Assembly: GCA_021294815.2 (NCBI GenBank)
Contig: CP095464.1
Location: 210,001-242,000 of the forward strand
Origin: Verrucomicrobiota bacterium
GTDB lineage: Bacteria > Verrucomicrobiota > Verrucomicrobiia > Opitutales > LL51
Direction of reading: 5' to 3'
Length of the DNA stretch: 32,000 nucleotides
Shown here: positions 4,110 through 29,323 of the stretch, one piece after another
How the letters are laid out: each line of letters begins with the position of its first letter
Position numbering within the stretch: position 1 is the first letter of the stretch
Notes under the pieces: model-generated
The model's input: the letters and a program-made list of their open reading frames with translations, nothing else
What the model was told of the DNA's origin: nothing
The model's database searches: none
Program-made: the position numbers and the translations under genes

Positions 4110-5117
4110 TCAAAGGTTAAAAGACCATTGGTCGCGTAATTCACGAAATTTTGGCGTCAAAATCACCCGCTTTATCGCTTCGTTGAGCGTTTCTCGCCAA
4201 GGGTTATTGGGCAAAATTCGAAACGCGAGTTCCTTACGGATCCCGAGCGACAGATACCGAAGACGGGGATCCTGCGCGAGCCAATCCTGCGCCGTAAAAT
4301 GGTCGACGAGTGCATAATCGAGGTTTTTGCCCTCCAATTCCTGTAAAATGTATTGTCGAAGCGTCTTGAGATCATCACAGACCACAATTTTGGCATCCTG
4401 AATCTGGGCCGAACGGATAAATCGCTCGGCAGAAGAATCGCGTAATACCCCGATGCATTTCCCCGTAAAATTCAGCTTTTTTGACGGTTTTGCTGTTGTA
4501 TCTTGACTTTGGATCTTAAGAAAAACCGCACCAAGATCTGTTGATACAATGCCGCTCGTGTAATCTTTAGCATCTTCATCGCACCAATTCGAACCCAAAA
4601 CAACATCGATGGAGTGATCCTGTAACTTCTGGGCTACCTCGGCTGCTGAAATCGCCACAAAATCGTGTTGAAACGCCCCCTCTTGCGCTAAAAGTAAAAA
4701 AACATCGATCTCGAACCCGGCAAATTCATGACCACGTTGTTCACAGAACGGCAAGTTGTGATCGAGTACGCCGACACGGAGAACCTTTTTCGCCTCGGTA
4801 TTTGGAGCTGCTTGTTGTTGCGATACCCGTTGAGGAAGTAGGCGCTCCGCAAGCTTCGCAGCCGCATCGATTTTTTGGGAATCTAACGTAATTTTGAATC
4901 CCTCGGTGTTGGCTTTTTGGTGGCTTAAATCGTGGCGCTCGTGATAAGAAAAAAGCGCATCGGCAATCGCTCGCGCGGCATTGACGTGTTTCGCTTCGAT
5001 CGTCAGACTGGTGGGTTCTTCTTGCGCTGTTCCGAGCTCCGAAGACGGCCCTGATTGCCCACAACAAAGCGGTATCCCTAAAAAAATTCCTAGCAGCCCC
5101 ACCATCCATCCACGCAT
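4110..5117 (-). CDS. Periplasmic solute-binding protein, family 3 (amino-acid type), with a ~110-aa N-terminal extension
   Basis: 335 aa. Signal peptide MRGWMVGLLGIFLGIPLCCG. The C-terminal ~220 aa resemble SBP_bac_3 (LRVGVLDHNLPF..GFEIDV...IDVVLGS). No cognate permease or ATPase is adjacent. Confidence 0.6.
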   Translation of the reverse strand: MRGWMVGLLGIFLGIPLCCGQSGPSSELGTAQEEPTSLTIEAKHVNAARAIADALFSYHERHDLSHQKANTEGFKITLDSQKIDAAAKLAERLLPQRVSQQQAAPNTEAKKVLRVGVLDHNLPFCEQRGHEFAGFEIDVFLLLAQEGAFQHDFVAISAAEVAQKLQDHSIDVVLGSNWCDEDAKDYTSGIVSTDLGAVFLKIQSQDTTAKPSKKLNFTGKCIGVLRDSSAERFIRSAQIQDAKIVVCDDLKTLRQYILQELEGKNLDYALVDHFTAQDWLAQDPRLRYLSLGIRKELAFRILPNNPWRETLNEAIKRVILTPKFRELRDQWSFNL

Positions 5118-5155
5118 AGGCTCTTTCTGTAATCTTACTGCGTGATGTCAATGTT

Positions 5156-6025
5156 TTAGGTCTGGAAGTACGCGAGCTCCGCCCATTGTCCAAGCACCCT
5201 CGTATTCAAAAAATAAGAATCCCAGTACTGCTTGACGAGCGGTGTAAATACCGCCTCAACCGCCGAAGCCTCTTCTTTTAAAATCCCGCTTAGCGAAAGG
5301 CAGCCATAGCGATTGACAGTGTTGACTAAAATCGATGCGTGTTCGATCAGTACGGACGCAAGGACATTCGCCATGATGAGGTCGCCCTGACGGCCTAAAA
5401 TGCCCGCCTTGAGGTCCGCGGTCCGGAATTCGATTCCTGGCGTCTCGTTAAGCACCGCATTGCTGCGACTGACCTGGATCGCATCTGGATCGATATCGAA
5501 GCCATACACGCCTGCAAACCCAAGTTTTGCGGCCGCAATCGAAAGAATTCCTGAGCCACAACCGACATCAATCGCCTGCTTTAAAAAAAGATCTTTCGAA
5601 AATAATCCCTTGTAATCCACCGCACGCGATAGGCAAAGGCGCGTCGTCTCGTGCATCCCCGTCCCAAACGCCATTTCTGCGTCCAGAAAAATGCCAAAAT
5701 CGCCCGAGGGGATTTCATAAGTGTCACGCTCCCAAACAGGGACTATGTGAATGGGCCCAATACGAACTGGATGAAGATACCGCTTATATGCGTCTTTCCA
5801 ATCACAAGCCTCGACGGGCTCGACCACTAAAGATTTTTCTTTTAGTGCAGGATAGAGAACCTGTAATTCCACCCACGCGGGCTCGTAATTCTCGTCGAAA
5901 TAACCACACAGTTGGCAGGCAGCATCAGTCTTTTCGATGGTCCAATTAGGCTGCTCATGCACCTCCAAGAGCTGCGACAACTCCGTACATTCTTGGGTAG
6001 ATAACGCTAAAAAGACCTTATTCAT
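5156..6025 (-). CDS. prmA: Ribosomal protein L11 methyltransferase
   Basis: 289 aa. SAM motif DVGCGSGILSIAAAKLG..FDIDPDA, with FGTGMHETTRLCL preceding it. Overlaps the rpe stop by 8 nt. Confidence 0.85.
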   Translation of the reverse strand: MNKVFLALSTQECTELSQLLEVHEQPNWTIEKTDAACQLCGYFDENYEPAWVELQVLYPALKEKSLVVEPVEACDWKDAYKRYLHPVRIGPIHIVPVWERDTYEIPSGDFGIFLDAEMAFGTGMHETTRLCLSRAVDYKGLFSKDLFLKQAIDVGCGSGILSIAAAKLGFAGVYGFDIDPDAIQVSRSNAVLNETPGIEFRTADLKAGILGRQGDLIMANVLASVLIEHASILVNTVNRYGCLSLSGILKEEASAVEAVFTPLVKQYWDSYFLNTRVLGQWAELAYFQT

Positions 6026-11448: not shown

Positions 11449-12516
11449 TTAGTCTTTTGTCGCAAGGGCTCCTTGTCCCACTTTGCTCATCGTACGCAAA
11501 TGAAAGTAAAGTGTTTCGAAAACCGTTATTGACTCACGGTAATAGGTAGATAAATCGACGATCGCCCACAAAAGTTGGCGCTGGAACTGAAGCCACTCCC
11601 TGACGCTATGCTGTTGTGCAATTGGTAACAACTTCGACAGATACCACGGATTTTGGCTAAAAATACTTTCATCCGATGCCTTGGGATAACGCGTTGCAAG
11701 CTGTTCAAGTGTTGCTTTATTAATACGCGCCACGTGATCATGCTCACATAAATAAGCGAGCTGTACCAAAATACGAACCCGGTTTTGTAAGGCCATAAGC
11801 AACGGACGCCCCTCTTCCTGATATAAAAAGTAGCGCCGAATTTCTTCCCGAAAACGCTCAACATCGTCTTGAAAAAAACTATCGATTGTTTCAAAAAAAT
11901 CGCTATTTTGAATGTCTACCACAACCGCTCGGATATCCTCGATTTCAATATCACGGCGATCGCCGACGTATAGTAACAATTTTTCGAGCTCATTATCGAT
12001 GACGGCCGTTTCATTCCCTGTTCGTCTCAAGAAAAGCGCTGCGGCTTCAGAAGTGATTTTTTTCTGCTCCTTTTCGATTTTTTTAGAAAGTAACCGCTCG
12101 CAATCCAATGCCTTCAGTGATTCACACAGCTCGGACTGACTGTGGTCTAAAAACCATTTCACGACCTTTTGTCGGCGATCACACGCTCCTGCGGTTAATA
12201 AAAATCCGGTGGGCACAGTTTTCAAAGTTTTCTGAACAACCTCGATCCACTCCAGAACAGCTTCTGATTTCAAGACCACACTGTCATTGAGATACGATAC
12301 CCCGCGGTACCAGACGAATTTTTCCTCGGAAAAGAGTGACGACGTTCGAAGTGCCTCATGGACCCGTTTTAATTCCGCAACCACCTCGGCAACCTTTGTC
12401 GCTTCACTCGCAATCACCTCAATTTCTTGATTCCGATGCGACTCCAAAACTGCCTCTCCGCGGTTAAGAACCGTGAAGGCATCGCTACCGAAAATAAAAA
12501 ACCGCTCGCCGACCAT
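11449..12516 (-). CDS. holA: DNA polymerase III subunit delta
   Basis: 355 aa. Its length, N-terminal FIFGSD.F pattern and the ITSEAAALFLRRTGNETAVIDNELEKLLLYVGDR..IEIEDIRAVV and RPLLMALQNRVRILVQL segments line up by eye with E. coli HolA domains II/III. Confidence 0.65.
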   Translation of the reverse strand: MVGERFFIFGSDAFTVLNRGEAVLESHRNQEIEVIASEATKVAEVVAELKRVHEALRTSSLFSEEKFVWYRGVSYLNDSVVLKSEAVLEWIEVVQKTLKTVPTGFLLTAGACDRRQKVVKWFLDHSQSELCESLKALDCERLLSKKIEKEQKKITSEAAALFLRRTGNETAVIDNELEKLLLYVGDRRDIEIEDIRAVVVDIQNSDFFETIDSFFQDDVERFREEIRRYFLYQEEGRPLLMALQNRVRILVQLAYLCEHDHVARINKATLEQLATRYPKASDESIFSQNPWYLSKLLPIAQQHSVREWLQFQRQLLWAIVDLSTYYRESITVFETLYFHLRTMSKVGQGALATKD

Positions 12517-13701: not shown

Positions 13702-14455
13702 AAACCGTTAAGAGAATGGTTAGGGCGTTGTTAGCCGCATGCGCAAAAATAGCAGGCCACAGATTTCCATAGCGCTCATACAGCCACGTCAACAAAAGGC
13801 TAAACAAAAATAATCCTGGAAAACTCCGTAAATTGCCATGGAGTTGTGCAAATAACCAAGCCGTTAGCAGCGCGGCACAATACGGTCCCCGAAAAAGACC
13901 CTTCAAGTAACGGTAACAATAGTAGCGGAACCCGATTTCTTCGATAATGGGTGCTAGAATAACCGCCGCAACAGCAACACCAAAAACAGGCCACAATTCT
14001 GTCGCGTTCTGTAGGAGTAGCAAAATGCCCTGTGGAACGGATGGATATTGCCAGTAATCTAATAAAACTTCCCAAAGTGGCGTAATTAGAATAACAATTC
14101 CTAGCCAGAGAAGCGCCATACAACCCAAGCTTGCCCAGAGTTGACGGCGATATAATGGCAGCGGATTCACCGATGGATAATAACGAAACTGGTTGAGGCG
14201 AATGCCAAAAAATCCACAAGACAATGCCGTTACCCCAACGGCTACTTCTAAAAGAGATTCCCGTGCGAGTGGTGATAGCGTCTGGAGATGTGATGTGAGA
14301 AAAATTCGCGGTAATAGGAGACACTGTAATCCCCCAATGCCCGTGAAAATAAAGCGTAGCGGTGCAATTTTGATCGGCGATAGTGCGCTCATTGCTTTAA
14401 TTAATGCGTAACGGCATAATGACACATTTAAAGTCGTCATTCGTTCGGATGACAC
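13682..14455 (-). CDS. CPBP family intramembrane glutamic endopeptidase (CAAX protease-like)
   Basis: Multi-TM protein with APIIEEIGFRYY, FAQLHGN and FAHAANNAL motifs. The start is uncertain: GTG 14455, ATG 14440 or ATG 14392, none with a good RBS. The longest form overlaps the dnaN end by 59 nt. Confidence 0.8.
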   Translation of the reverse strand: MSSERMTTLNVSLCRYALIKAMSALSPIKIAPLRFIFTGIGGLQCLLLPRIFLTSHLQTLSPLARESLLEVAVGVTALSCGFFGIRLNQFRYYPSVNPLPLYRRQLWASLGCMALLWLGIVILITPLWEVLLDYWQYPSVPQGILLLLQNATELWPVFGVAVAAVILAPIIEEIGFRYYCYRYLKGLFRGPYCAALLTAWLFAQLHGNLRSFPGLFLFSLLLTWLYERYGNLWPAIFAHAANNALTILLTVCGSTIF

Positions 14456-15515
14456 CGGGGCTCATTTCGTTCTTAAATTCGAAGGCAATCTCATCACTCG
14501 TTAGGACCTTGAGTGGATCGCAGAGGAATTGCGGATTAAAGCCCATTGCGATGTCTTCATCCTCGTAGGCAATCGGAAATACCTCGCGCGCCTCGCCATA
14601 GGCCTGACTCTGAGCGGAAATTTCGAGACTGTTTTTGGAAAATGCAAGCTTCACCGCGTAATTTTTCTCGTCGGCAACAAGCGCAATCCGCTGAATCACC
14701 GATAAGAGTTGTTCGCGATCGATGTGGATATGGTGATCGAGCGTGGATGGAATGACTTGTTTGTAATTCGGATAGTTGCCTTCGACAATTTTGGAGACGA
14801 CGTAAATTGAGTCCGTCATACTACCCTCTCCGGCAACATCAAAGAGAAATGCGATCTGTTTATCCGTTATCATGATTTGGGCAGTTTCACCAACGCCAAG
14901 CGTGCGCTCAAGCTCGACGACGGTTTTTGCCGGCACAATGACACTTCGCTGAAGAAGACACCCTGGGACTTCATTCGCAATCATCGCCAAACGTCGCCCA
15001 TCGGTCGCGATAAAATGGAGCTTCTCACCCTCTACGAGCCAGTACATGCCATTTAACAGATAGCGGTTTTCATCCCGTGATTGCGCATACGAAATGCTTT
15101 TGAGCATCCTGGCAAACTGCATCTGATTTAGCGTAACCTTCTGTTCAATCTCGAGTTGCGGAAGCTTAGGGAAATCCTCTGCGGGCAATCCCAGAACACG
15201 GAAATGCGAACTCCCCCCTGAAATACTAATTTGCTCATTCGTCTCCGAACGAAACTCAACGGTCTTTGCCGCAAGCGCCTTGATGATCGAAGTGAGTTTT
15301 TTGACCGGTAAAGTTGTGCTTCCCGGCTCTGAAACTTCTGCCTTTACGAGGCAGCGCATCCCAATGTCAAGATTGGTTGTCGATAGTGCGATACGTTCCG
15401 GCATGGCTTCTAATAAAACATTGGACAAGATGGGCATTGTTAATCGTGTCCCCACAACATTCATGACCTGTTGTAGCCCCGCTATGAGCGCCTCCTTCTC
15501 GATCGAAAACTTCAT
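14397..15515 (-). CDS. dnaN: DNA polymerase III subunit beta (sliding clamp)
   Basis: 372 aa. MKFSIEKEALIAGLQQV..VVGTR.TMPILSNVLLEA...L.L..TNLDI. Three-domain length, C-terminal MPLRIN. Confidence 0.92.
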   Translation of the reverse strand: MKFSIEKEALIAGLQQVMNVVGTRLTMPILSNVLLEAMPERIALSTTNLDIGMRCLVKAEVSEPGSTTLPVKKLTSIIKALAAKTVEFRSETNEQISISGGSSHFRVLGLPAEDFPKLPQLEIEQKVTLNQMQFARMLKSISYAQSRDENRYLLNGMYWLVEGEKLHFIATDGRRLAMIANEVPGCLLQRSVIVPAKTVVELERTLGVGETAQIMITDKQIAFLFDVAGEGSMTDSIYVVSKIVEGNYPNYKQVIPSTLDHHIHIDREQLLSVIQRIALVADEKNYAVKLAFSKNSLEISAQSQAYGEAREVFPIAYEDEDIAMGFNPQFLCDPLKVLTSDEIAFEFKNEMSPGVIRTNDDFKCVIMPLRIN

Positions 15516-15624
15516 TACCCATCACCGTAGGCCTCGCACTACAAATGACAAGCCCTATCCCACGGGTGACGATTTTATCGTTGGCAGATGGATTTTACGG
15601 TTTATCCTCATCGCCAAACGGATC

Positions 15625-16989
15625 ATGCGCCTTGGAAGATATTTAGCGAAAAATCGAATTATCGAGCTGAAAAGCCACGAGTTTAAGGATGCCCTCGTCG
15701 AGCTTTTATCGACTTGCGCGATCGCCAAGAACGCTGAGGAACAAGACTCGATCGTTAACGAGATTCTCGAACGTGAACAAACGATTACGTCGTATTTAGG
15801 CAATGGAGTTGCCCTTCCTTACATCCGACGTCCGATTAATAAGCCCTATATTTTCGCCATTGGGCGCTGTAAGAATGGTCTTAATTTTGCAAATTCCGGT
15901 GAACATAAGGATACACGGATCATCTTTTTGATGATTATTTCGACCGAAAACGAAGAATCCTACCTTACCGTACTCGCGGCAATCGCCCGTATTTTTCAGA
16001 GCCAAGAAAATATTCATCAGATTCTCGCGAACCAATCTATTGGCTCCTTCCGTGGTCATATTCGAAACCTCTTTGGTGCGTGTAAATCGATTACCAATCA
16101 AAGTAAGAACCATCAGAATCAACTGATGCTCCGGGAAGCACAAAAGATTGTGAAAGCGACTAAATGTAGTACGGTTCTTATTTTTGGAGATATTTTAACG
16201 AGTTCGTTCGAAATTGAAGCACCGACCAGTAATGCAAAACTCGTCCTCGTCACCCATAAAACGGATAGTCTTGCTGCTTCGGAAAATAATTTTGATGACG
16301 TTATTTACGTTCATCCATTCTCGAATTACCGTCTTTCTCAGGCCCGTAGCGCGATTATCATCGGTTTAACACGCGGTATTATTAGTCATAAAGACAAAGT
16401 TTGCTGCTTCTCAGGTCTCCCTCAAAGTGATATTTTTGATACCATTTCTATTATTGATGTCGCCAAAGAGTTTGGGAATTCGTTCTTTAATAACGAAGAT
16501 CTTTTATCGGAAGGCATCCATCCGGAGGCACTCGAACGGTTATTGGCCATCGCGGCGGATATCTCCGTCGAAGGTAGGGAAGGAAAGCCCGTGGGTTGTC
16601 TCTTTGTCATTGGGGATATTGCTAAAATTAAGCCCTTTACAAAGCCTCTCGTCCTTAATCCATTCTACGGCTACAAAGAAGAAGACCGTAATATTTTAAA
16701 CCCCTTTATGGCAGAAACCATTAAGGAATTTTCTTCTATTGATGGCGCATTTATCGTCCGAGGTGACGGCGTTATCGAGTCCGCAGGATCGTTGATTCAG
16801 GCATCGAGTGAAAATGCTATCCAGATGCCAAGCGGATTTGGAACGCGTCATGCCGCCGGAGCGGTTATTTCAGCCGTTGCCGATTGTATCGCAATCGCGG
16901 TTTCGGAGAGTACCCATCAGGTAACGCTGTTTAAAGATGGTAAAATGATGCTATTCTCTGACCAAAGTTTTTCATCCTCAACCATCTAA
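15625..16989 (+). CDS. Fusion protein: EIIA(Ntr)-like PTS_EIIA_2 domain, PK_C-like middle domain, DisA_N diadenylate cyclase domain
   Basis: The track ORF starts at a TTG (15280) inside dnaN. The first plausible start is the ATG at 15625 (454 aa). The N-terminus aligns with PtsN (ILEREQTITSYLGNGVALPYI vs ILTREKMGSTGIGNGIAIPHG). The C-terminus carries DAC motifs: GCLFVIGD, IDGAFIV (16741-) and GTRHAAG (16840-16860), then AIAVSESTHQVTLFKDG. Confidence 0.8.
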   Translation: MRLGRYLAKNRIIELKSHEFKDALVELLSTCAIAKNAEEQDSIVNEILEREQTITSYLGNGVALPYIRRPINKPYIFAIGRCKNGLNFANSGEHKDTRIIFLMIISTENEESYLTVLAAIARIFQSQENIHQILANQSIGSFRGHIRNLFGACKSITNQSKNHQNQLMLREAQKIVKATKCSTVLIFGDILTSSFEIEAPTSNAKLVLVTHKTDSLAASENNFDDVIYVHPFSNYRLSQARSAIIIGLTRGIISHKDKVCCFSGLPQSDIFDTISIIDVAKEFGNSFFNNEDLLSEGIHPEALERLLAIAADISVEGREGKPVGCLFVIGDIAKIKPFTKPLVLNPFYGYKEEDRNILNPFMAETIKEFSSIDGAFIVRGDGVIESAGSLIQASSENAIQMPSGFGTRHAAGAVISAVADCIAIAVSESTHQVTLFKDGKMMLFSDQSFSSSTI

Positions 16990-19976: not shown

Positions 19977-20112
19977 GTTTCGACTACTCTGACAGCTTAC
20001 TCATGAAAGAGACCAATATACGTTCGTTTATCGCAGTATGTGATTTAAAGCATCTTGACAAAACCCACGCCTAATAAAATGGTTTTTGAATCCTGAATTA
20101 GGGAATACATGC

Positions 20113-20514
20113 ATGAAGAAACACTTTTATCTACTTTCACTGGCAATATGTCTTGTTTATCCAATTTTCGCCATTGCAGCAGGCCCTTATGATGATCTAA
20201 TGCCGCAATTAGTGCAAATTTACGGCAATATTCCGGAGGTAGATCAATTTATCGAGCTTGCCAACAAACATTGGAAATTTATCCGAAAATGGCACATTAA
20301 AATGCGGCGATCGTTGTGGCCGCCAATGTCCGAAGAAGATCGTAAAGCACTTAGGTTAATTGAAGATAAATCAAAGCCGGAACATTTATCCTCTCACCAT
20401 CCTTTTGTTGCCGACTGGTTTATTGATCACCTCGGATTATCGCCGAGAAAACAAGGCCCCCATTTCGGATCGCTAGTGAAACTCTTGAACACCCGCGATG
20501 CTACTAAAAACTGA
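20113..20514 (+). CDS. Secreted protein of unknown function (family member P1)
   Basis: 133 aa from the ATG at 20113 (the track ORF starts at an upstream TTG). Signal peptide MKKHFYLLSLAICLVYPIFAIAA. The mature region is paralogous to P3 (GPYDDLMPQLVQIYG / APYDHLREPLENLYG; FIELANKH / FISLANRNH; VADWFI / VETWFI). Confidence 0.6.
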   Translation: MKKHFYLLSLAICLVYPIFAIAAGPYDDLMPQLVQIYGNIPEVDQFIELANKHWKFIRKWHIKMRRSLWPPMSEEDRKALRLIEDKSKPEHLSSHHPFVADWFIDHLGLSPRKQGPHFGSLVKLLNTRDATKN

Positions 20515-20629
20515 TAGTAAAAATATCTTGACAAAATTTATCAAAGGCGAAGCTCCATGGCTAAGCGTTGGCGCAGAAGCTTTTGGTGGGAAGGTATTCT
20601 GTTTTCCCACTGATAAGAAAGGAAAACAC

Positions 20630-21109
20630 ATGAAGAATCATATTACTAAACTCTTATCAGTATTATTGCTGGGTGGTTCTATTTCAACTGCACTTGCTGT
20701 CAGACAGGGGCCACCGGTTCGTGCAACACACGAACACGTTTATGGCCTGCGAAACTTTTTGAGAACCCTTCACCAACAAGACGGTGTCAGCGGAGAGTTA
20801 TTTCATTTCGTCAACGAGCGTACAGGAAACATCAATCTCACCGGCGTTAGTTCCACAGATCTCGATATCTTGGTCGCCTTTTTCGTCTTACTACACCCGG
20901 AATGTATAGGGGAACTCACCTCATCGCTCGAAAGATACGGCGAGAGAACGCAGACCTGGGTTGAGCCTGGGATTGTGCATCTTTGGTCACTCAAGGAACA
21001 AATCGAGGATGGCAATTTTACCGCAGCAGAAATACGGGATGCGGTTCGTCGGAATTTTCTCACGGTGCAGGAAGCTCAAGATCTCTTCAATATGTGGCTT
21101 TCGGCCTAG
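20630..21109 (+). CDS. Secreted protein of unknown function (family member P2)
   Basis: 159 aa from the ATG at 20630 (AAAGGA RBS upstream). Signal peptide MKNHITKLLSVLLLGGSISTALA is almost identical to that of P3. I recognise no family in the mature part. Confidence 0.6.
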   Translation: MKNHITKLLSVLLLGGSISTALAVRQGPPVRATHEHVYGLRNFLRTLHQQDGVSGELFHFVNERTGNINLTGVSSTDLDILVAFFVLLHPECIGELTSSLERYGERTQTWVEPGIVHLWSLKEQIEDGNFTAAEIRDAVRRNFLTVQEAQDLFNMWLSA

Positions 21110-21197
21110 AAGAAATGATTTTTTAGGGTACGCATTTGGGTGGAAAGATTTTTAACGGAAGAATTGTAAATGCTTCTGTTATCAAGGGAAAAAATAC

Positions 21198-21836
21198 ATG
21201 AAGAATCATATCACTAAACTCATATCAGCATTATTAATCGGCGGTTCCATTTCGTCTGTGATCGCAAGCGCACCGAAATCTGTTCGGCCGGGTCCTCGGG
21301 GAAACCTCATTTCAAGGACAATGAGTGTCGCTCATGCGCCTTATGATCATTTGAGGGAGCCTTTGGAGAATCTCTACGGCAAGGATGAGCTAGGCGGCGC
21401 ACTTGTTGATAACTTCATTAGCCTCGCAAACCGCAATCACCAGCGAATTAAGGGAAACGCGACCCCCGAGGAGCTTGCACAGTTAGGTCTCCCCGCTCAA
21501 GGAGCCATCAATCCAGCGCTTGTCGAGACTTGGTTTATCTATCAATTCACTCAAATACCCGCAAAGGAACGCAATCTATATTTTGTGGAGCGCATCGAAG
21601 AGTTGAATGACAGCGATTCGTATGAAGAAGATGGTGATCCATGCGACGAAGGGGCAGCGGAAAGGACAATCGAAAACCTAAGGCAAATCCAAGAAAAAGT
21701 TGAAAAACGAGAAATTTCTTGGTCCCAAGTTGAGACACTACGTCACCTTCACTTGCTACCCGATGGTTCTAACGAGGAGGAGGAAGAAGAAGAAGAAGAG
21801 GAGGAAGAAGCCTATCTGACCGGGGAACTTGACTAA
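21198..21836 (+). CDS. Secreted acidic protein of unknown function (family member P3) with a poly-Glu tail
   Basis: 212 aa. Signal peptide MKNHITKLISALLIGGSISSVIA. The central region is paralogous to P1. The acidic C-terminus includes 12 consecutive Glu. Confidence 0.65.
   Translation: MKNHITKLISALLIGGSISSVIASAPKSVRPGPRGNLISRTMSVAHAPYDHLREPLENLYGKDELGGALVDNFISLANRNHQRIKGNATPEELAQLGLPAQGAINPALVETWFIYQFTQIPAKERNLYFVERIEELNDSDSYEEDGDPCDEGAAERTIENLRQIQEKVEKREISWSQVETLRHLHLLPDGSNEEEEEEEEEEEEAYLTGELD
21774..21809 (+). repeat. GAR trinucleotide tract encoding Glu x12 within P3
   Basis: GAG GAG GAG GAA GAA GAA GAA GAA GAG GAG GAA GAA, in frame with the 21198 start. Confidence 0.95.
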
Positions 21837-26710: not shown

Positions 26711-28210
26711 CTAGCTGTATTGTTCGAGGAGAAAAGTCATTAATTCGGACTCGCTCAGGCGGCGCTGTTCCATGGTATCGCGGTCACGGAGCGTATAGGT
26801 TCCCTGTTCGAGAGAATCGAAATCCACGGTAATACAATACGGCGTTCCGATTTCATCCATGCGACGATAACGACGGCCGATTGCCCCACTCTCATCGTAT
26901 TGTACAAACCAATGACGTGCGAGTTTTTGATGTAGTTGTTTCGCAAGGTCGACCAACTCTGGACGATTTTTGACCAATGGGAATACCGCTGCTTTAACAG
27001 GTGCGATTTTGGGATGAAACTTCATCACAACACGTGTCTCATTCTCAACGGACTCCTCATGGTAAGCCGAACAGAGAACCGCTAAAAACAGTCGATCGAC
27101 GCCAATAGCAGGTTCAATAACGTGTGGCAGATAGCTACGATGCTCCGCCTCATCAAAGTATTCGAGATTTTTCCCGCTAGCATTTTGGTGTTGCGTCAGG
27201 TCAAAATTCCCTCGCGCCGCAATTCCTTCGAGCTCTTGAACTCCGAATGGATAATGGAAGGTGATATCGGTACAAGCACGTGAATAATGTGCTAGCTTTT
27301 CGGGACGATGGACATCCAATGCAAGGCGTTTTTCATCGAGGCCGATTGATTTGAGCCAGTCAAAACGCGTTTGGACCCAGTATTGGTGCCAGTGCTGCCA
27401 ATCCGCATTATCTTGAATAAAAAATTCCATCTCCATTTGCTCGAATTCGCGCGAACGGAAGGTGAAATTACGGGGCGTAATCTCGTTACGGAAGGAACGG
27501 CCCATTTGCGCAATCCCAAACGGTAACTTGAGGCGATTCGTATTGAGGACGTTTTTGAAATTCACAAACATCCCCTGTGCAGTTTCAGGCCGGAGGTAAG
27601 CAACGGATGAATCGTCAACCACCGCACCAACATGGGTTTGGAACATCAAGTTGAACGCTCGTGGTGCTGTTAAGGAGCCCGGTTGACCGGTTGCCGGGGA
27701 AGGAATTAACGCATACTCTTCCGGCATCGCCTCTGTGTAGGGTTTTAAAACAACCGGATCTAAAGTCCCCTGCTTCGCCTGCTTACGTTTAAGTTTGTCG
27801 GCCTGCTGCTCCGCTTCCGATTGCATGTTTTCATCTTCGAGTACAGAGACGTAGCCCAACAATTCACCGGCAACCGTAACCTTTGCAAAGTAAAGTTGAT
27901 CGGCCCGATAACGCATTTTCGAAACCTTACAGTCCACCATCGGATCGGAAAAACCATCGACATGTCCCGAAGCCTTCCAAACCGCAGGGTGCATAATAAT
28001 CGAACAGTCGATACCGACAATGTCCCCGCGTTGATGGACCATTGCGTTCCACCAAGCATCTTTGATATTTTTCTTAATCTCGATACCGAGTGGACCATAG
28101 TCAAAAAATCCGGCAATCCCGTTATAAATATCAGACGACGGAAAAATCGCCCCCCGCCGTTTACACCACCCTAAAATTTGGTCCATCGTCGGACCTTCAT
28201 CAAGCGCCAT
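26711..28210 (-). CDS. glyQS: Glycine--tRNA ligase (dimeric class II type)
   Basis: [53 protein letters not shown], and a C-terminal anticodon-binding domain. The ATG at 28210 ([12 protein letters not shown]) lies 1 nt after the upstream stop; the track ORF starts earlier. Confidence 0.9.
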
Positions 28211-28211
28211 A

Positions 28212-28487
28212 CTAAAGTGAACTGCGTTCGAACCACCCCTTTTGGTGATAGGTATTCTTAAGCCCAAGTATGGCAGTATAGAGGTAGACTAAATACAACA
28301 CACACTGTTGAACCTCGCCAATCCGAAAGTTATGCCACACAAAGAAAAAATTTGACCCAAGCCATAAGACGTAACTCAATTTGAAACGCGTCGTCGCATT
28401 AAAATAAGAACCTAAAAGCGCTATCGCCGTAAACGTCCAGATAACCGCTTGTATGTGCTCTTGAAACCAATAATAAACCTCATTCAT
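28212..28487 (-). CDS. Small three-helix membrane protein, PnuC-half-like (paralog B)
   Basis: 91 aa from the ATG at 28487 (the track ORF extends to 28544 across the upstream gene). Three hydrophobic helices. Roughly half of its aligned positions match paralog A by eye. The stop of A (28489-28491) is 1 nt from this start. Confidence 0.6.
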
Positions 28488-28488
28488 T

Positions 28489-28758
28489 TTATACCTTTGT
28501 TCGCTGTAACCAACCGCGTATGTGGCGCGTGTTTTTGTAACCAATCGCCATCGTGATTGCGGTCACGAAATAAAAAATACTTTGCTGGATCTCGCCAATG
28601 TAAAAGTTATAGAAGACAAAAAAGGAATCGCTACAAAGCCATAGCGCATAACCCAATTTGAAACGCGTGGTACCGTTAAAATACGAGCCCAGCAGCGAGA
28701 TAATCGAGAACCCCCATAAGATACTTTGTCCACCGGTACTCGCCCAAGCCTTATGCAT
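28489..28758 (-). CDS. Small three-helix membrane protein, PnuC-half-like (paralog A)
   Basis: 89 aa. Helices around ILWGFSIISLLGSYF, LGYALWLCSDSFFVFYNFYIG and IQQSIFYFVTAITMAIGY. The start overlaps the AAA_28 gene stop by 8 nt. Confidence 0.6.
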   Translation of the reverse strand: MHKAWASTGGQSILWGFSIISLLGSYFNGTTRFKLGYALWLCSDSFFVFYNFYIGEIQQSIFYFVTAITMAIGYKNTRHIRGWLQRTKV

Positions 28759-29323
28759 CTTTTAATACAATTTTTCCATCCTCATTAATATGGATATTAC
28801 AGGCTAACATCTCGGGGTACGATAACATACAAACACGATCACCAAACTTTTCCAAAAAGAATTTTTTAAGGAGATCTTCTACATTTTGCGCAAATTGACG
28901 ATCGGTATCGCGTACACCATCCGCTTCAAGTGTCTCCTTACCCTCACCAGTTAACAAAATGATCTCGTCATAATCCTGTGTCCACGTTGTGAGTGCCGAC
29001 AATAGATGTTTTTCTAAATCCGTGATCGGATGTTGGCGGGTTGCCTCTGAATAAAAGAAAGAATCCAAAACTCCGCGGTCGAGCACCAAATAGGTATATC
29101 CGTGTGCGATAGCCTCAAGTTCCTTAACCGCTTGTTTGAGTGCAATATAGAGCGTCGACTCTACGGTCTGCCCCTTATTAATCGGAAACGGAGATTCGCG
29201 TGCCGTCTCGCTGATGACGATCGCATTATAGCCCTTTCGCTTTAATTCGGAACAAATGCGATGCGAAAGCGTCGATTTCCCACAACCATGTGTCCCGGTA
29301 ATCAAACATCTACGAATGGCCAT
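28751..29323 (-). CDS. AAA_28 / NadR-type (ribosylnicotinamide kinase-like) P-loop ATPase
   Basis: 190 aa. Walker A ITGTHGCGKSTL, then VLDRG (Walker B-like), then YDEIILLTGEG..LEADGVRDTDRQFAQ, which resembles the NadR C-terminal kinase domain family. Confidence 0.6.
   Translation of the reverse strand: MAIRRCLITGTHGCGKSTLSHRICSELKRKGYNAIVISETARESPFPINKGQTVESTLYIALKQAVKELEAIAHGYTYLVLDRGVLDSFFYSEATRQHPITDLEKHLLSALTTWTQDYDEIILLTGEGKETLEADGVRDTDRQFAQNVEDLLKKFFLEKFGDRVCMLSYPEMLACNIHINEDGKIVLKDA

Follow-up and report, generated by a model that had tools for sequence, protein, structure and literature searches.

We have analysed a stretch of 32,000 nucleotides from a Verrucomicrobiota bacterium (Opitutales, LL51; assembly GCA_021294815.2, contig CP095464.1, positions 210,001 to 242,000 of the forward strand), hereafter the window, and in particular three minus-strand genes at positions 28,212 to 29,323 that encode a P-loop ATPase and two small membrane proteins, designated B and C. 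Our reading, to which we give a probability of about 0.6, is that this cluster encodes a minimal Pnu-type uptake module, in which a half-size facilitator of the PnuC kind (a semi-Pnu), here presumably a heterodimer of B and C, would be combined with a trapping kinase. Judged from profile comparisons, each of the small proteins is one three-helix Pnu repeat, and the clade of the window proteins is one branch, a divergent one, within a large family of half-size proteins. PnuC itself is the textbook full-length, SWEET-like vitamin transporter.

Direct comparison with the Pfam family of PnuC (PF04973, NMN_transporter; profile length 175, gathering cut-off 27.3 bits) yields for C a score of 16.4 bits (E 0.009), over profile positions 107–172 of 175, which correspond to the C-terminal repeat. 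Since B and C taken alone are borderline, their homology to PnuC rests on intermediate sequences, for which we have used three profiles: A1, with 7 sequences of the window clade; A4, with 14 sequences of the close clade; and A2, with 103 sequences, namely the two window proteins, five near relatives and 96 hits of A1. A HMMER search with A1 over 1.84 billion representatives retrieved 124 proteins at E≤1e-3, nearly all of them of 65–130 residues (median ~80; for example P0054, at 1.5e-9), and B matches the same profile at E 1.4e-42. Two much longer matches, P0061 (476 residues) and P0127 (758 residues), were discarded as false positives, being tandem-repeat proteins that score through many weak repeated stretches. 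The A1 profile reaches small PF04973-positive proteins at 1e-9 to 1e-6, and several of its matches score above the Pfam threshold within the C-terminal repeat (P0054, 40.6 bits; P0067, 35.6; P0078, 33.6; P0140, 34.7). Indeed, 79 of the 103 members of A2 match PF04973 (E≤0.01), every other family being matched by two members at most. Compared with the solved PnuC of Neisseria mucosa (4QTN), A2 gives an E of 5.9e-7, with a strong match to residues 161–239 and a weak one to residues 41–118, and when aligned by hhalign to nine full-length PnuC sequences (that of E. coli and eight phage proteins) it spans all three helices of both the C-terminal repeat (96.4% / 1.1e-9) and the N-terminal repeat (95.8% / 6.9e-9). 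Narrower queries were less productive: A4 against E. coli PnuC alone gave a non-significant hhalign result in the right register, C alone found no PnuC among PDB sequences, and a tblastn search of C against 50,697 phage records gave no match. Both B and C hit the same Pnu repeat, and with 89 and 91 residues and three helices neither of them is a two-repeat 3+1+3 chain.

A preliminary description of this DNA had considered B and C to be paralogs with three helices each, and had aligned them by eye to the C-terminal repeat of E. coli PnuC. The paralogy is borne out, as the two proteins share 52% identity across 85 residues (BLASTP E 3e-32), far beyond chance. Three helices are likewise found: the AlphaFold2 model of C, with a predicted local distance difference test (pLDDT) score of 94.8, places them at residues 2–31, 35–56 and 59–79, and hydropathy and charge distribution fit three transmembrane (TM) segments in an N-out/C-in arrangement. 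This topology is indicated by the concentration of lysine and arginine in loop 1 and the C-terminal tail across the 103 members (1.85 and 3.7 per sequence, as compared with 0.1 in the N-terminal tail and 0.3 in loop 2), and in the 3+1+3 Pnu architecture either repeat of PnuC would be expected to have it. The register proposed by eye (around residues 182–221 of E. coli PnuC) coincides with that of hhalign. The homology to PnuC that it implied is recovered through the broad profile, as seen in the A2 comparison with 4QTN, and not through the direct PF04973 match, which stays below the cut-off.

Residue conservation within A2 points to the ligand site of Pnu transporters. In the numbering of C, the best conserved positions are W42 (103/103), G26 and N/D46 (102/103 each), G75 (101/103), N/D53 (98/103), F/Y39 (92/103), Q61 (87/103) and N30 (84/103), and the small proteins share a conserved polar set consisting of N30, N46, N53, E58 and Q61. 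The segment [F/Y]39-x-x-W42-x-x-x-[N/D]46 in TM2 aligns with QWALWIVVN of 4QTN. The ligand-binding motif of Pnu transporters is WxxW(x)3D/N (PMC5749112), and its place in full-length proteins is TM6, the second helix of the C-terminal repeat. Of this motif B and C both keep the second tryptophan and the N/D, the first tryptophan being replaced by tyrosine or phenylalanine; in PnuT, substrate binding survives a W-to-F mutation (PMC5749112).

Half-size proteins of this kind are also recovered by structure. A Foldseek comparison with predicted viral structures returned proteins of 68–101 residues and full-length phage PnuC (TM-scores 0.6–0.9, root-mean-square deviation 1–3 Å, E 0.04–2), several of these matches having been named PnuC automatically. 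Among the best fold matches in BFVD are W8W1N3 of Invertebrate iridescent virus 30 (101 residues, named NMN transporter) and AMV001 of Amsacta moorei entomopoxvirus (80 residues), both with E 0.2–0.3 and TM-scores of ~0.6–0.75. In the protein P0055 (208 residues), two half-size units (residues 19–80 and 120–191) are naturally fused through a hydrophobic linker helix in a 3+1+3-like arrangement; it has no Pfam match at E≤1. This fusion may be an independent route to the full-length architecture, and it indicates that two half-size units can work in one parallel assembly.

The gene upstream of B encodes the ATPase, whose match to PF13521 (AAA_28; profile length 164, cut-off 27 bits) reaches 54.3 bits (E 2.5e-14) over profile positions 1–153 of 164. 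By hhalign, its residues 3–166 align with residues 231–386 of E. coli NadR, the ribosylnicotinamide kinase (RNK) domain, at E 1.5e-4, with correspondence of the GxxxxGKST, ExxRE/ExxRD, D-R/D-T and ADGVR/ADGLR lid segments, the last of which lies within ...EADGVRDTD... in the ATPase. Residues H12, G13, G15, K16 and T18, E39/R42/E43, D82-R83 and D135-G136-x-R138 are invariant in 20 homologs. E. coli Tmk also aligns, but only over the first 110 residues (E 6.6e-4). The AlphaFold2 model (pLDDT 88.6) finds as best Foldseek matches the deoxyadenosine kinases (dAK) of Giardia and Mycoplasma, thymidylate kinases (TMPK), AbmG and Dm-dNK (E 3e-6 to 4e-5, TM-score ~0.6); a profile of the ATPase family matches weakly, among PDB sequences, PSTK, the deoxyadenosine/deoxyguanosine kinase 2JAS (2e-3) and TMPK (7e-3), and the best PHROG match is a family labelled 'thymidylate kinase' (5e-19). 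These fold matches do not discriminate, because a TMPK-like fold has been reported for the RNK domain too (PMC7221760). In Pfam, the ATPase has no dNK match and Thymidylate_kin appears as a faint match in one homolog. The protein is a single domain without NMNAT fusion, its homologs having 170–228 residues. On these grounds the ATPase belongs to the NadR-RNK family, in which it is a distant, stand-alone member, and has the nucleoside/nucleotide-kinase fold; the sequence does not reveal its substrate. A distant AAA_28 homolog, P0044 (34–38% identical; loci L006–L008, gene 4001–4534 in L006), sits in a phage-like block: it is preceded by a run of small open reading frames (ORFs) that lies downstream of a ClpB/sigma54-type AAA protein, and it is followed by HD-domain, VWA and Holliday-junction-endonuclease genes. 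This locus was dropped as evidence on kinase/transporter coupling: the next gene encodes a soluble protein of 167 residues, not a membrane protein.

The association of the two gene types is conserved. Apart from the window, an ATPase gene stands directly upstream of a small gene in ~14 distinct Puniceicoccales/Verrucomicrobiota loci, which were reached both from the small-protein side and from the ATPase side, some loci duplicating the same contig. The genes of the pair mostly overlap by a few to ~30 nucleotides or abut, with spacers of 18–24 nucleotides in L033 and L039. The flanks vary between loci (lpxB-[pair]-glyS, priA-[pair]-glyS, lptF/G-[pair]-glyS, glyS-[pair] and [pair]-cysS), which argues that the pair and not its neighbourhood is what is kept. 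For instance, in L037 (3001–3850) glyS lies upstream of the pair and a tRNA U5-methyltransferase-like gene is on the opposite strand, and in L039 (2526–3368) cysS lies downstream. Two small genes occur in the window and in L014 alone, a close relative with a C protein 92% identical to that of the window, every other locus examined having a single one of ~83–96 codons. The tandem of B and C is a lineage-specific duplication. In a neighbour-joining tree C groups with the single-copy orthologs (60–71% identity), and B is on a long branch (39–52% identity to all others). Synonymous codon differences between the window and L014 exceed nonsynonymous ones in the ATPase gene (37/0), in B (9/2) and in C (19/7), and thus all three genes are under purifying selection.

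Within the window the three genes are closely joined. Gene B ends with TAA at 28491–28489, followed by a single A and by the ATG of C at 28487–28485, and C ends with TAG at 28214–28212, followed by a T and by an ATG at 28210–28208, the start of a class-II GlyRS (with tRNA-synt_2b and HGTP_anticodon domains, as seen in relatives). The overlap of ATPase and B and the 1-nucleotide spacer between B and C suggest translational coupling. Upstream of the ATPase gene lies lpxB, at a distance of 45 nucleotides, and past lpxB are ychF and an LptF/G-neighbour ORF; this run of genes reads as one housekeeping operon. Neither a terminator nor a riboswitch was found between the genes of the cluster, and Rfam detects no riboswitch anywhere in the window, with no NAD, TPP or FMN riboswitch upstream; as in addition the 45-nucleotide gap ahead of the ATPase gene is too short for one, RNA gives no clue to the ligand. 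Taken together, these data meet the other claims of the preliminary description as follows. The tight minus-strand packing, with an 8-nucleotide overlap and two 1-nucleotide gaps, is confirmed at the junctions, and the recognition of a P-loop and of an AAA_28/NadR-type ATPase agrees with the Pfam score and the whole-length RNK alignment. The synteny of an ATPase gene with a small gene is found elsewhere, in different surroundings; that of a triad is found in L014 alone, the conserved unit being the ATPase and one small gene. From the expression 'split' or semi PnuC, the single-repeat, half-size form stands, and the notion of a split protein or of an obligate heterodimer does not extend to relatives that have one small gene. 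Semi therefore fits better than split, since the basic unit is the ATPase with one half-transporter, whose second copy was duplicated in the window and in L014.

Features of the three-gene cluster, in positions of the window
Feature	Position	Strand	Size or basis
ATPase, stand-alone AAA_28 (NadR/Ttd14-type) P-loop kinase-like protein, proposed trapping kinase	28751-29323	-	190 aa
ATPase residues 10-18, GTHGCGKST, Walker A/P-loop	29270-29296	-	read from sequence
ATPase residues 135-138, DGVR, LID-like motif common with NadR RNK (ADGLR)	28910-28921	-	alignment A3
Overlap of ATPase stop and B start, ATGCATAA, 8 nt	28751-28758	-	read from sequence
Small protein B, 3 TM, fast-diverging half-size Pnu paralog	28489-28758	-	89 aa
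B residues 37-44, YALWLCSD, Pnu-type motif	28627-28650	-	A2 alignment, register versus 4QTN
Cytoplasmic tail of B, as in the kinase-coupled clade	28492-28520		
Junction of B stop and C start, TAAAATG, 1-nt spacer	28485-28491	-	read from sequence
Small protein C, 3 TM, paralog nearest to the single-copy orthologs	28212-28487	-	91 aa
C residues 39-46, YVLWLGSN, Pnu-type motif	28350-28373	-	A2 alignment, register versus 4QTN
Cytoplasmic tail of C, as in the kinase-coupled clade	28215-28240		

These observations suggest the following mechanism. Because ~90 residues amount to one repeat, a pore must come from oligomerisation, and half-size units presumably dimerise, by analogy with SemiSWEET and SWEET: two subunits would associate in parallel into a six-helix pore, in the way that full-length PnuC builds its own from two repeats, and both would contribute W and N to a central site. 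A nucleoside-like nutrient would then enter by facilitated diffusion, and its phosphorylation by the ATPase would keep it trapped in the cell. Such a combination of facilitated diffusion and trapping by a kinase is established for PnuT and thiamine kinases and has been proposed for PnuC and NadR (PMC5749112). In relatives with one small gene the transporter would be a homodimer; in the window genome tandem duplication would have produced B and C, most likely as a heterodimer, given that they are tightly co-translated, both conserved and asymmetrically diverged. The clade-specific cytoplasmic tail is an invariant G-x-K-N-T-x-H-x-x-x-W, in place of the G-x-x-N-W of the wider family, and the ATPase could dock on it. 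Nicotinamide riboside (NR) is the leading substrate candidate in view of the AAA_28/RNK relationship of the ATPase, other nucleoside-like compounds being possible; it is no more than the leading candidate because the nearest solved folds are dAK and TMPK, with NadR outside the top 50. A fuller version of this reading is held tentatively, at somewhat less than even odds: a semi-Pnu dimer midway to the full-length form, having undergone tandem duplication and asymmetric divergence to an obligate B/C heterodimer that is still unfused, would be coupled, perhaps physically by way of its tails, to a new stand-alone AAA_28 kinase by which a nucleoside-like nutrient is trapped, the organism being probably host-associated and its genome reduced.

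Several results weigh against the proposed module and are considered here together. Both small proteins fall below the PF04973 cut-off when compared directly, B being without any Pfam match; the hhalign comparison of A4 with full-length PnuC reaches just E ~0.009, in the same register as A2, and neither A1 nor A4 finds a PnuC among PDB sequences. The Foldseek comparison of the C monomer with the PDB is non-significant, SemiSWEETs being on top (E 1.7–3; the first of them at E 1.7, TM-score 0.49), an outcome that is expected for a helical protein of 90 residues; the bundles of PnuC and SWEET are also connected differently. Where each repeat of Pnu transporters has its internal-gate tryptophan, on the cytoplasmic side of the third helix, the window clade has a threonine (T79); in the wider family this position is tryptophan in 50 of 103 members, and the window clade has a conserved tryptophan six residues later. 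On the kinase side, NadR is absent both from the top 50 structural matches and from the profile-to-PDB sequence matches at E≤1. Finally, many distant half-size homologs are found in phage genomes with no kinase nearby, and a nearer homolog, L034, is without the ATPase: kinase coupling is thus a property of the window clade and not of all half-size proteins. Among such distant relatives are the PF04973-like proteins P0175 (81 residues; L009–L011, gene 5001–5246) and P0169 (78 residues; L012–L013, gene 5001–5237), in phage- or archaeal-virus-like loci, one kind with ParB, methylase, portal and peptidase S49 genes and the other with PCNA and Fusello VP2; none of L009–L013 has a kinase nearby.

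The nature of the imported compound is the point at which a competing explanation has most to offer. The same uptake-and-trap layout could serve a substrate other than NR, such as a (deoxy)nucleoside (PnuN-like), thiamine or riboflavin, with the ATPase being a kinase of (deoxy)nucleoside type. The structural, profile-to-PDB and PHROG matches to deoxynucleoside and thymidylate kinases described above, without NadR in the first two, speak in its favour, as do the Pnu transporters for thiamine, riboflavin and deoxynucleosides that are known or have been predicted (PMC7749635) and the failure to find NAD, TPP or FMN riboswitches upstream. However, Pfam assigns the ATPase to AAA_28, the family of the NadR RNK, and not to dNK or Thymidylate_kin, and the alignment to the RNK domain is end to end and includes the DGxR lid, whereas that to Tmk covers only the N-terminal 110 residues; the fold matches are non-discriminating. 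We regard a substrate other than NR as a possible but, on balance, unlikely alternative. The subunit composition is open to a comparable question, in that B and C might each form homodimers, B having acquired a second substrate specificity by neofunctionalisation and using the same kinase or another one. Homodimerisation would be ancestral, since the single-copy orthologs would have to be homo-oligomers, and B, on its long branch, carries the changes N46D, W51F and H52Y at conserved sites and has also changed in the YLY segment of TM3; furthermore B and C both keep W(x)3N/D, a motif which the N-terminal repeat of full-length PnuC lost. Against this, the 1-nucleotide spacer and the common operon suggest equimolar co-translation, and heterodimerisation after tandem duplication is the proposed route of SWEET/PnuC evolution (PMC7162841). 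Separate homodimers appear rather improbable.

A role outside transport would make of the small proteins membrane anchors or regulators of the ATPase, or domesticated phage-type (e.g. holin-like) membrane proteins. This would agree with the occurrence of most of the distant half-size homologs on phage or virus contigs without kinase, with the 'unknown' label of phrog_2421 and phrog_19093, and with the clade tail, which could be a docking site instead of a gate. It is nevertheless disfavoured, as the best conserved residues are the intramembrane W, N/D, N and Q of the Pnu ligand site; moreover, the genes belong to a housekeeping operon and not to a prophage, they evolve under purifying selection, and a kinase next to a Pnu protein is the classical trapping layout. 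We thus consider a non-transport role quite unlikely. We also considered whether a frameshift or stop had split a full-length pnuC into B and C, leaving a decaying pseudogene; this would account for adjacent ORFs in different frames with a 1-nucleotide spacer, and the small contig (878 kb), suggestive of genome reduction, could be invoked for it. Yet both proteins align full length to the same repeat, with their own start codons and W(x)3N/D motifs; there is no linker helix between them; their 52% identity is far above that of PnuC's own repeats; and the single gene of the other relatives examined, together with the excess of synonymous changes, points the same way. A broken pnuC was accordingly ruled out, its probability being next to nil. 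The semi-Pnu module with its proposed trapping kinase is the reading that we retain.

The searchable literature yielded no account of a PnuC of half or 'semi' size, kinase-coupled or not; an earlier mention in Jaehme 2014 or in Jaehme & Slotboom 2015 is possible. Half-size PF04973 proteins are clearly already present in public data, mostly from phages, often unnamed or automatically named PnuC, and protein C is identical to the hypothetical protein LW808_001020 of a Verrucomicrobiota metagenome-assembled genome (MAG). If the proposed module is real, the semi-Pnu would give PnuC the same pairing of semi and full forms as SemiSWEET and SWEET, and it would bear on the dispute over the number of helices, three or four, in the Pnu protodomain (PMC7176098, PMC7162841). 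It would also offer a minimal, symmetric system of ~90 residues for studying the structure and mechanism of facilitated diffusion coupled to metabolic trapping; a series that exists in nature, from the single gene through the tandem pair of the window and the fusion in P0055 to full-length PnuC, which relates to the origin of pseudo-symmetric transporters; and a functional lead for unannotated or automatically annotated half-size phage 'PnuC' proteins. For the organisms themselves, it would point to nutrient scavenging in Puniceicoccales with small genomes. Most of the MAGs considered here are, as we take it, from JGI metagenomes, and their isolate codes look like those of samples that we presume to come from termite gut.

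Other features of the window were noted in passing. The ORF list extends glyS (26711–28267, minus strand) to a TTG at 28267, into the last part of gene C. A start at the ATG of 28210, 1 nucleotide past the stop of C, is likelier, as the resulting 499 residues compare with 500–503 in relatives. An ORF at 15280–16989 (plus strand) joins a PTS_EIIA_2, a DacZ_P and a c-di-AMP cyclase (DAC) domain. With the TTG listed as its start it would overlap dnaN (14397–15515, minus strand) at the 5' end of that gene, and translation probably begins further downstream. Three consecutive ORFs of 142, 203 and 212 codons (20086–21836, plus strand) and a 355-codon ORF at 11449–12516 (minus strand) have no Pfam match at E≤1e-5.

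Among the closest known systems is the PnuC/Pnu family (PF04973, TC 4.B.1, 4QTN), to which the small proteins are related through homology to both repeats at the level of family profiles, a substituted form of the ligand motif in the equivalent helix, the N-out/C-in arrangement of each three-helix unit, and the adjoining kinase-like gene that is the basis of the metabolic-trapping model. The differences are that PnuC has two repeats and a linker (7–8 TM segments, ~220–240 residues) where B and C have one repeat in ~90 residues; that the binding motif is present in both B and C, whereas in full-length PnuC it occurs in the C-terminal repeat alone; and that in B and C the first motif tryptophan is tyrosine or phenylalanine and the gate tryptophan is threonine, with scores below the Pfam cut-off. 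The small viral PF04973-like proteins (phrog_2421, phrog_19093 and UniProt 'PnuC' entries of 68–101 residues), none of them characterised, share family and half-size architecture, but are 25–35% identical to B and C, belong to phage or virus genomes without an adjoining kinase in the loci examined, and mostly keep the gate tryptophan, unlike the window clade. A two-gene cassette of a transporter and a NadR-family enzyme is also found as phage NARP3 (PnuC-like Bas30_87 and NadR-like Bas30_86; PMC13464706) and in other phage pnuC-nadR pairs, although there the transporters are full-length (~225–240 residues) and NAD synthesis is completed by an NMNAT domain of the enzyme, in contrast with the half-size proteins and the kinase-only partner described here. 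With respect to NadR, the ATPase resembles the RNK/AAA_28 domain in scoring above the PF13521 cut-off, in the alignment of its P-loop, ExxRE, D-[RT] and DGxR lid, and in the TMPK-like fold; it differs in being a distant relative (hhalign E 1.5e-4) and a stand-alone protein of 190 residues, without NMNAT or helix-turn-helix domain. The likeness to SemiSWEET is one of concept, in that a three-helix unit on its own would reproduce, as a parallel dimer, the pore of its 3+1+3 relative, and SemiSWEETs are also the top, non-significant PDB fold matches of C (E 1.7–3). No sequence relationship to them was detected, since MtN3_slv/PQ-loop gives no match for B or C at E≤10 and none among the 103 A2 members at E≤0.01; SemiSWEETs have no kinase coupling, and PnuC and SWEET differ in helix connectivity, their homology being disputed (PMC7176098, PMC7162841). 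By analogy with both systems, the module would thus function like PnuC with its trapping kinase and be built like a SemiSWEET.

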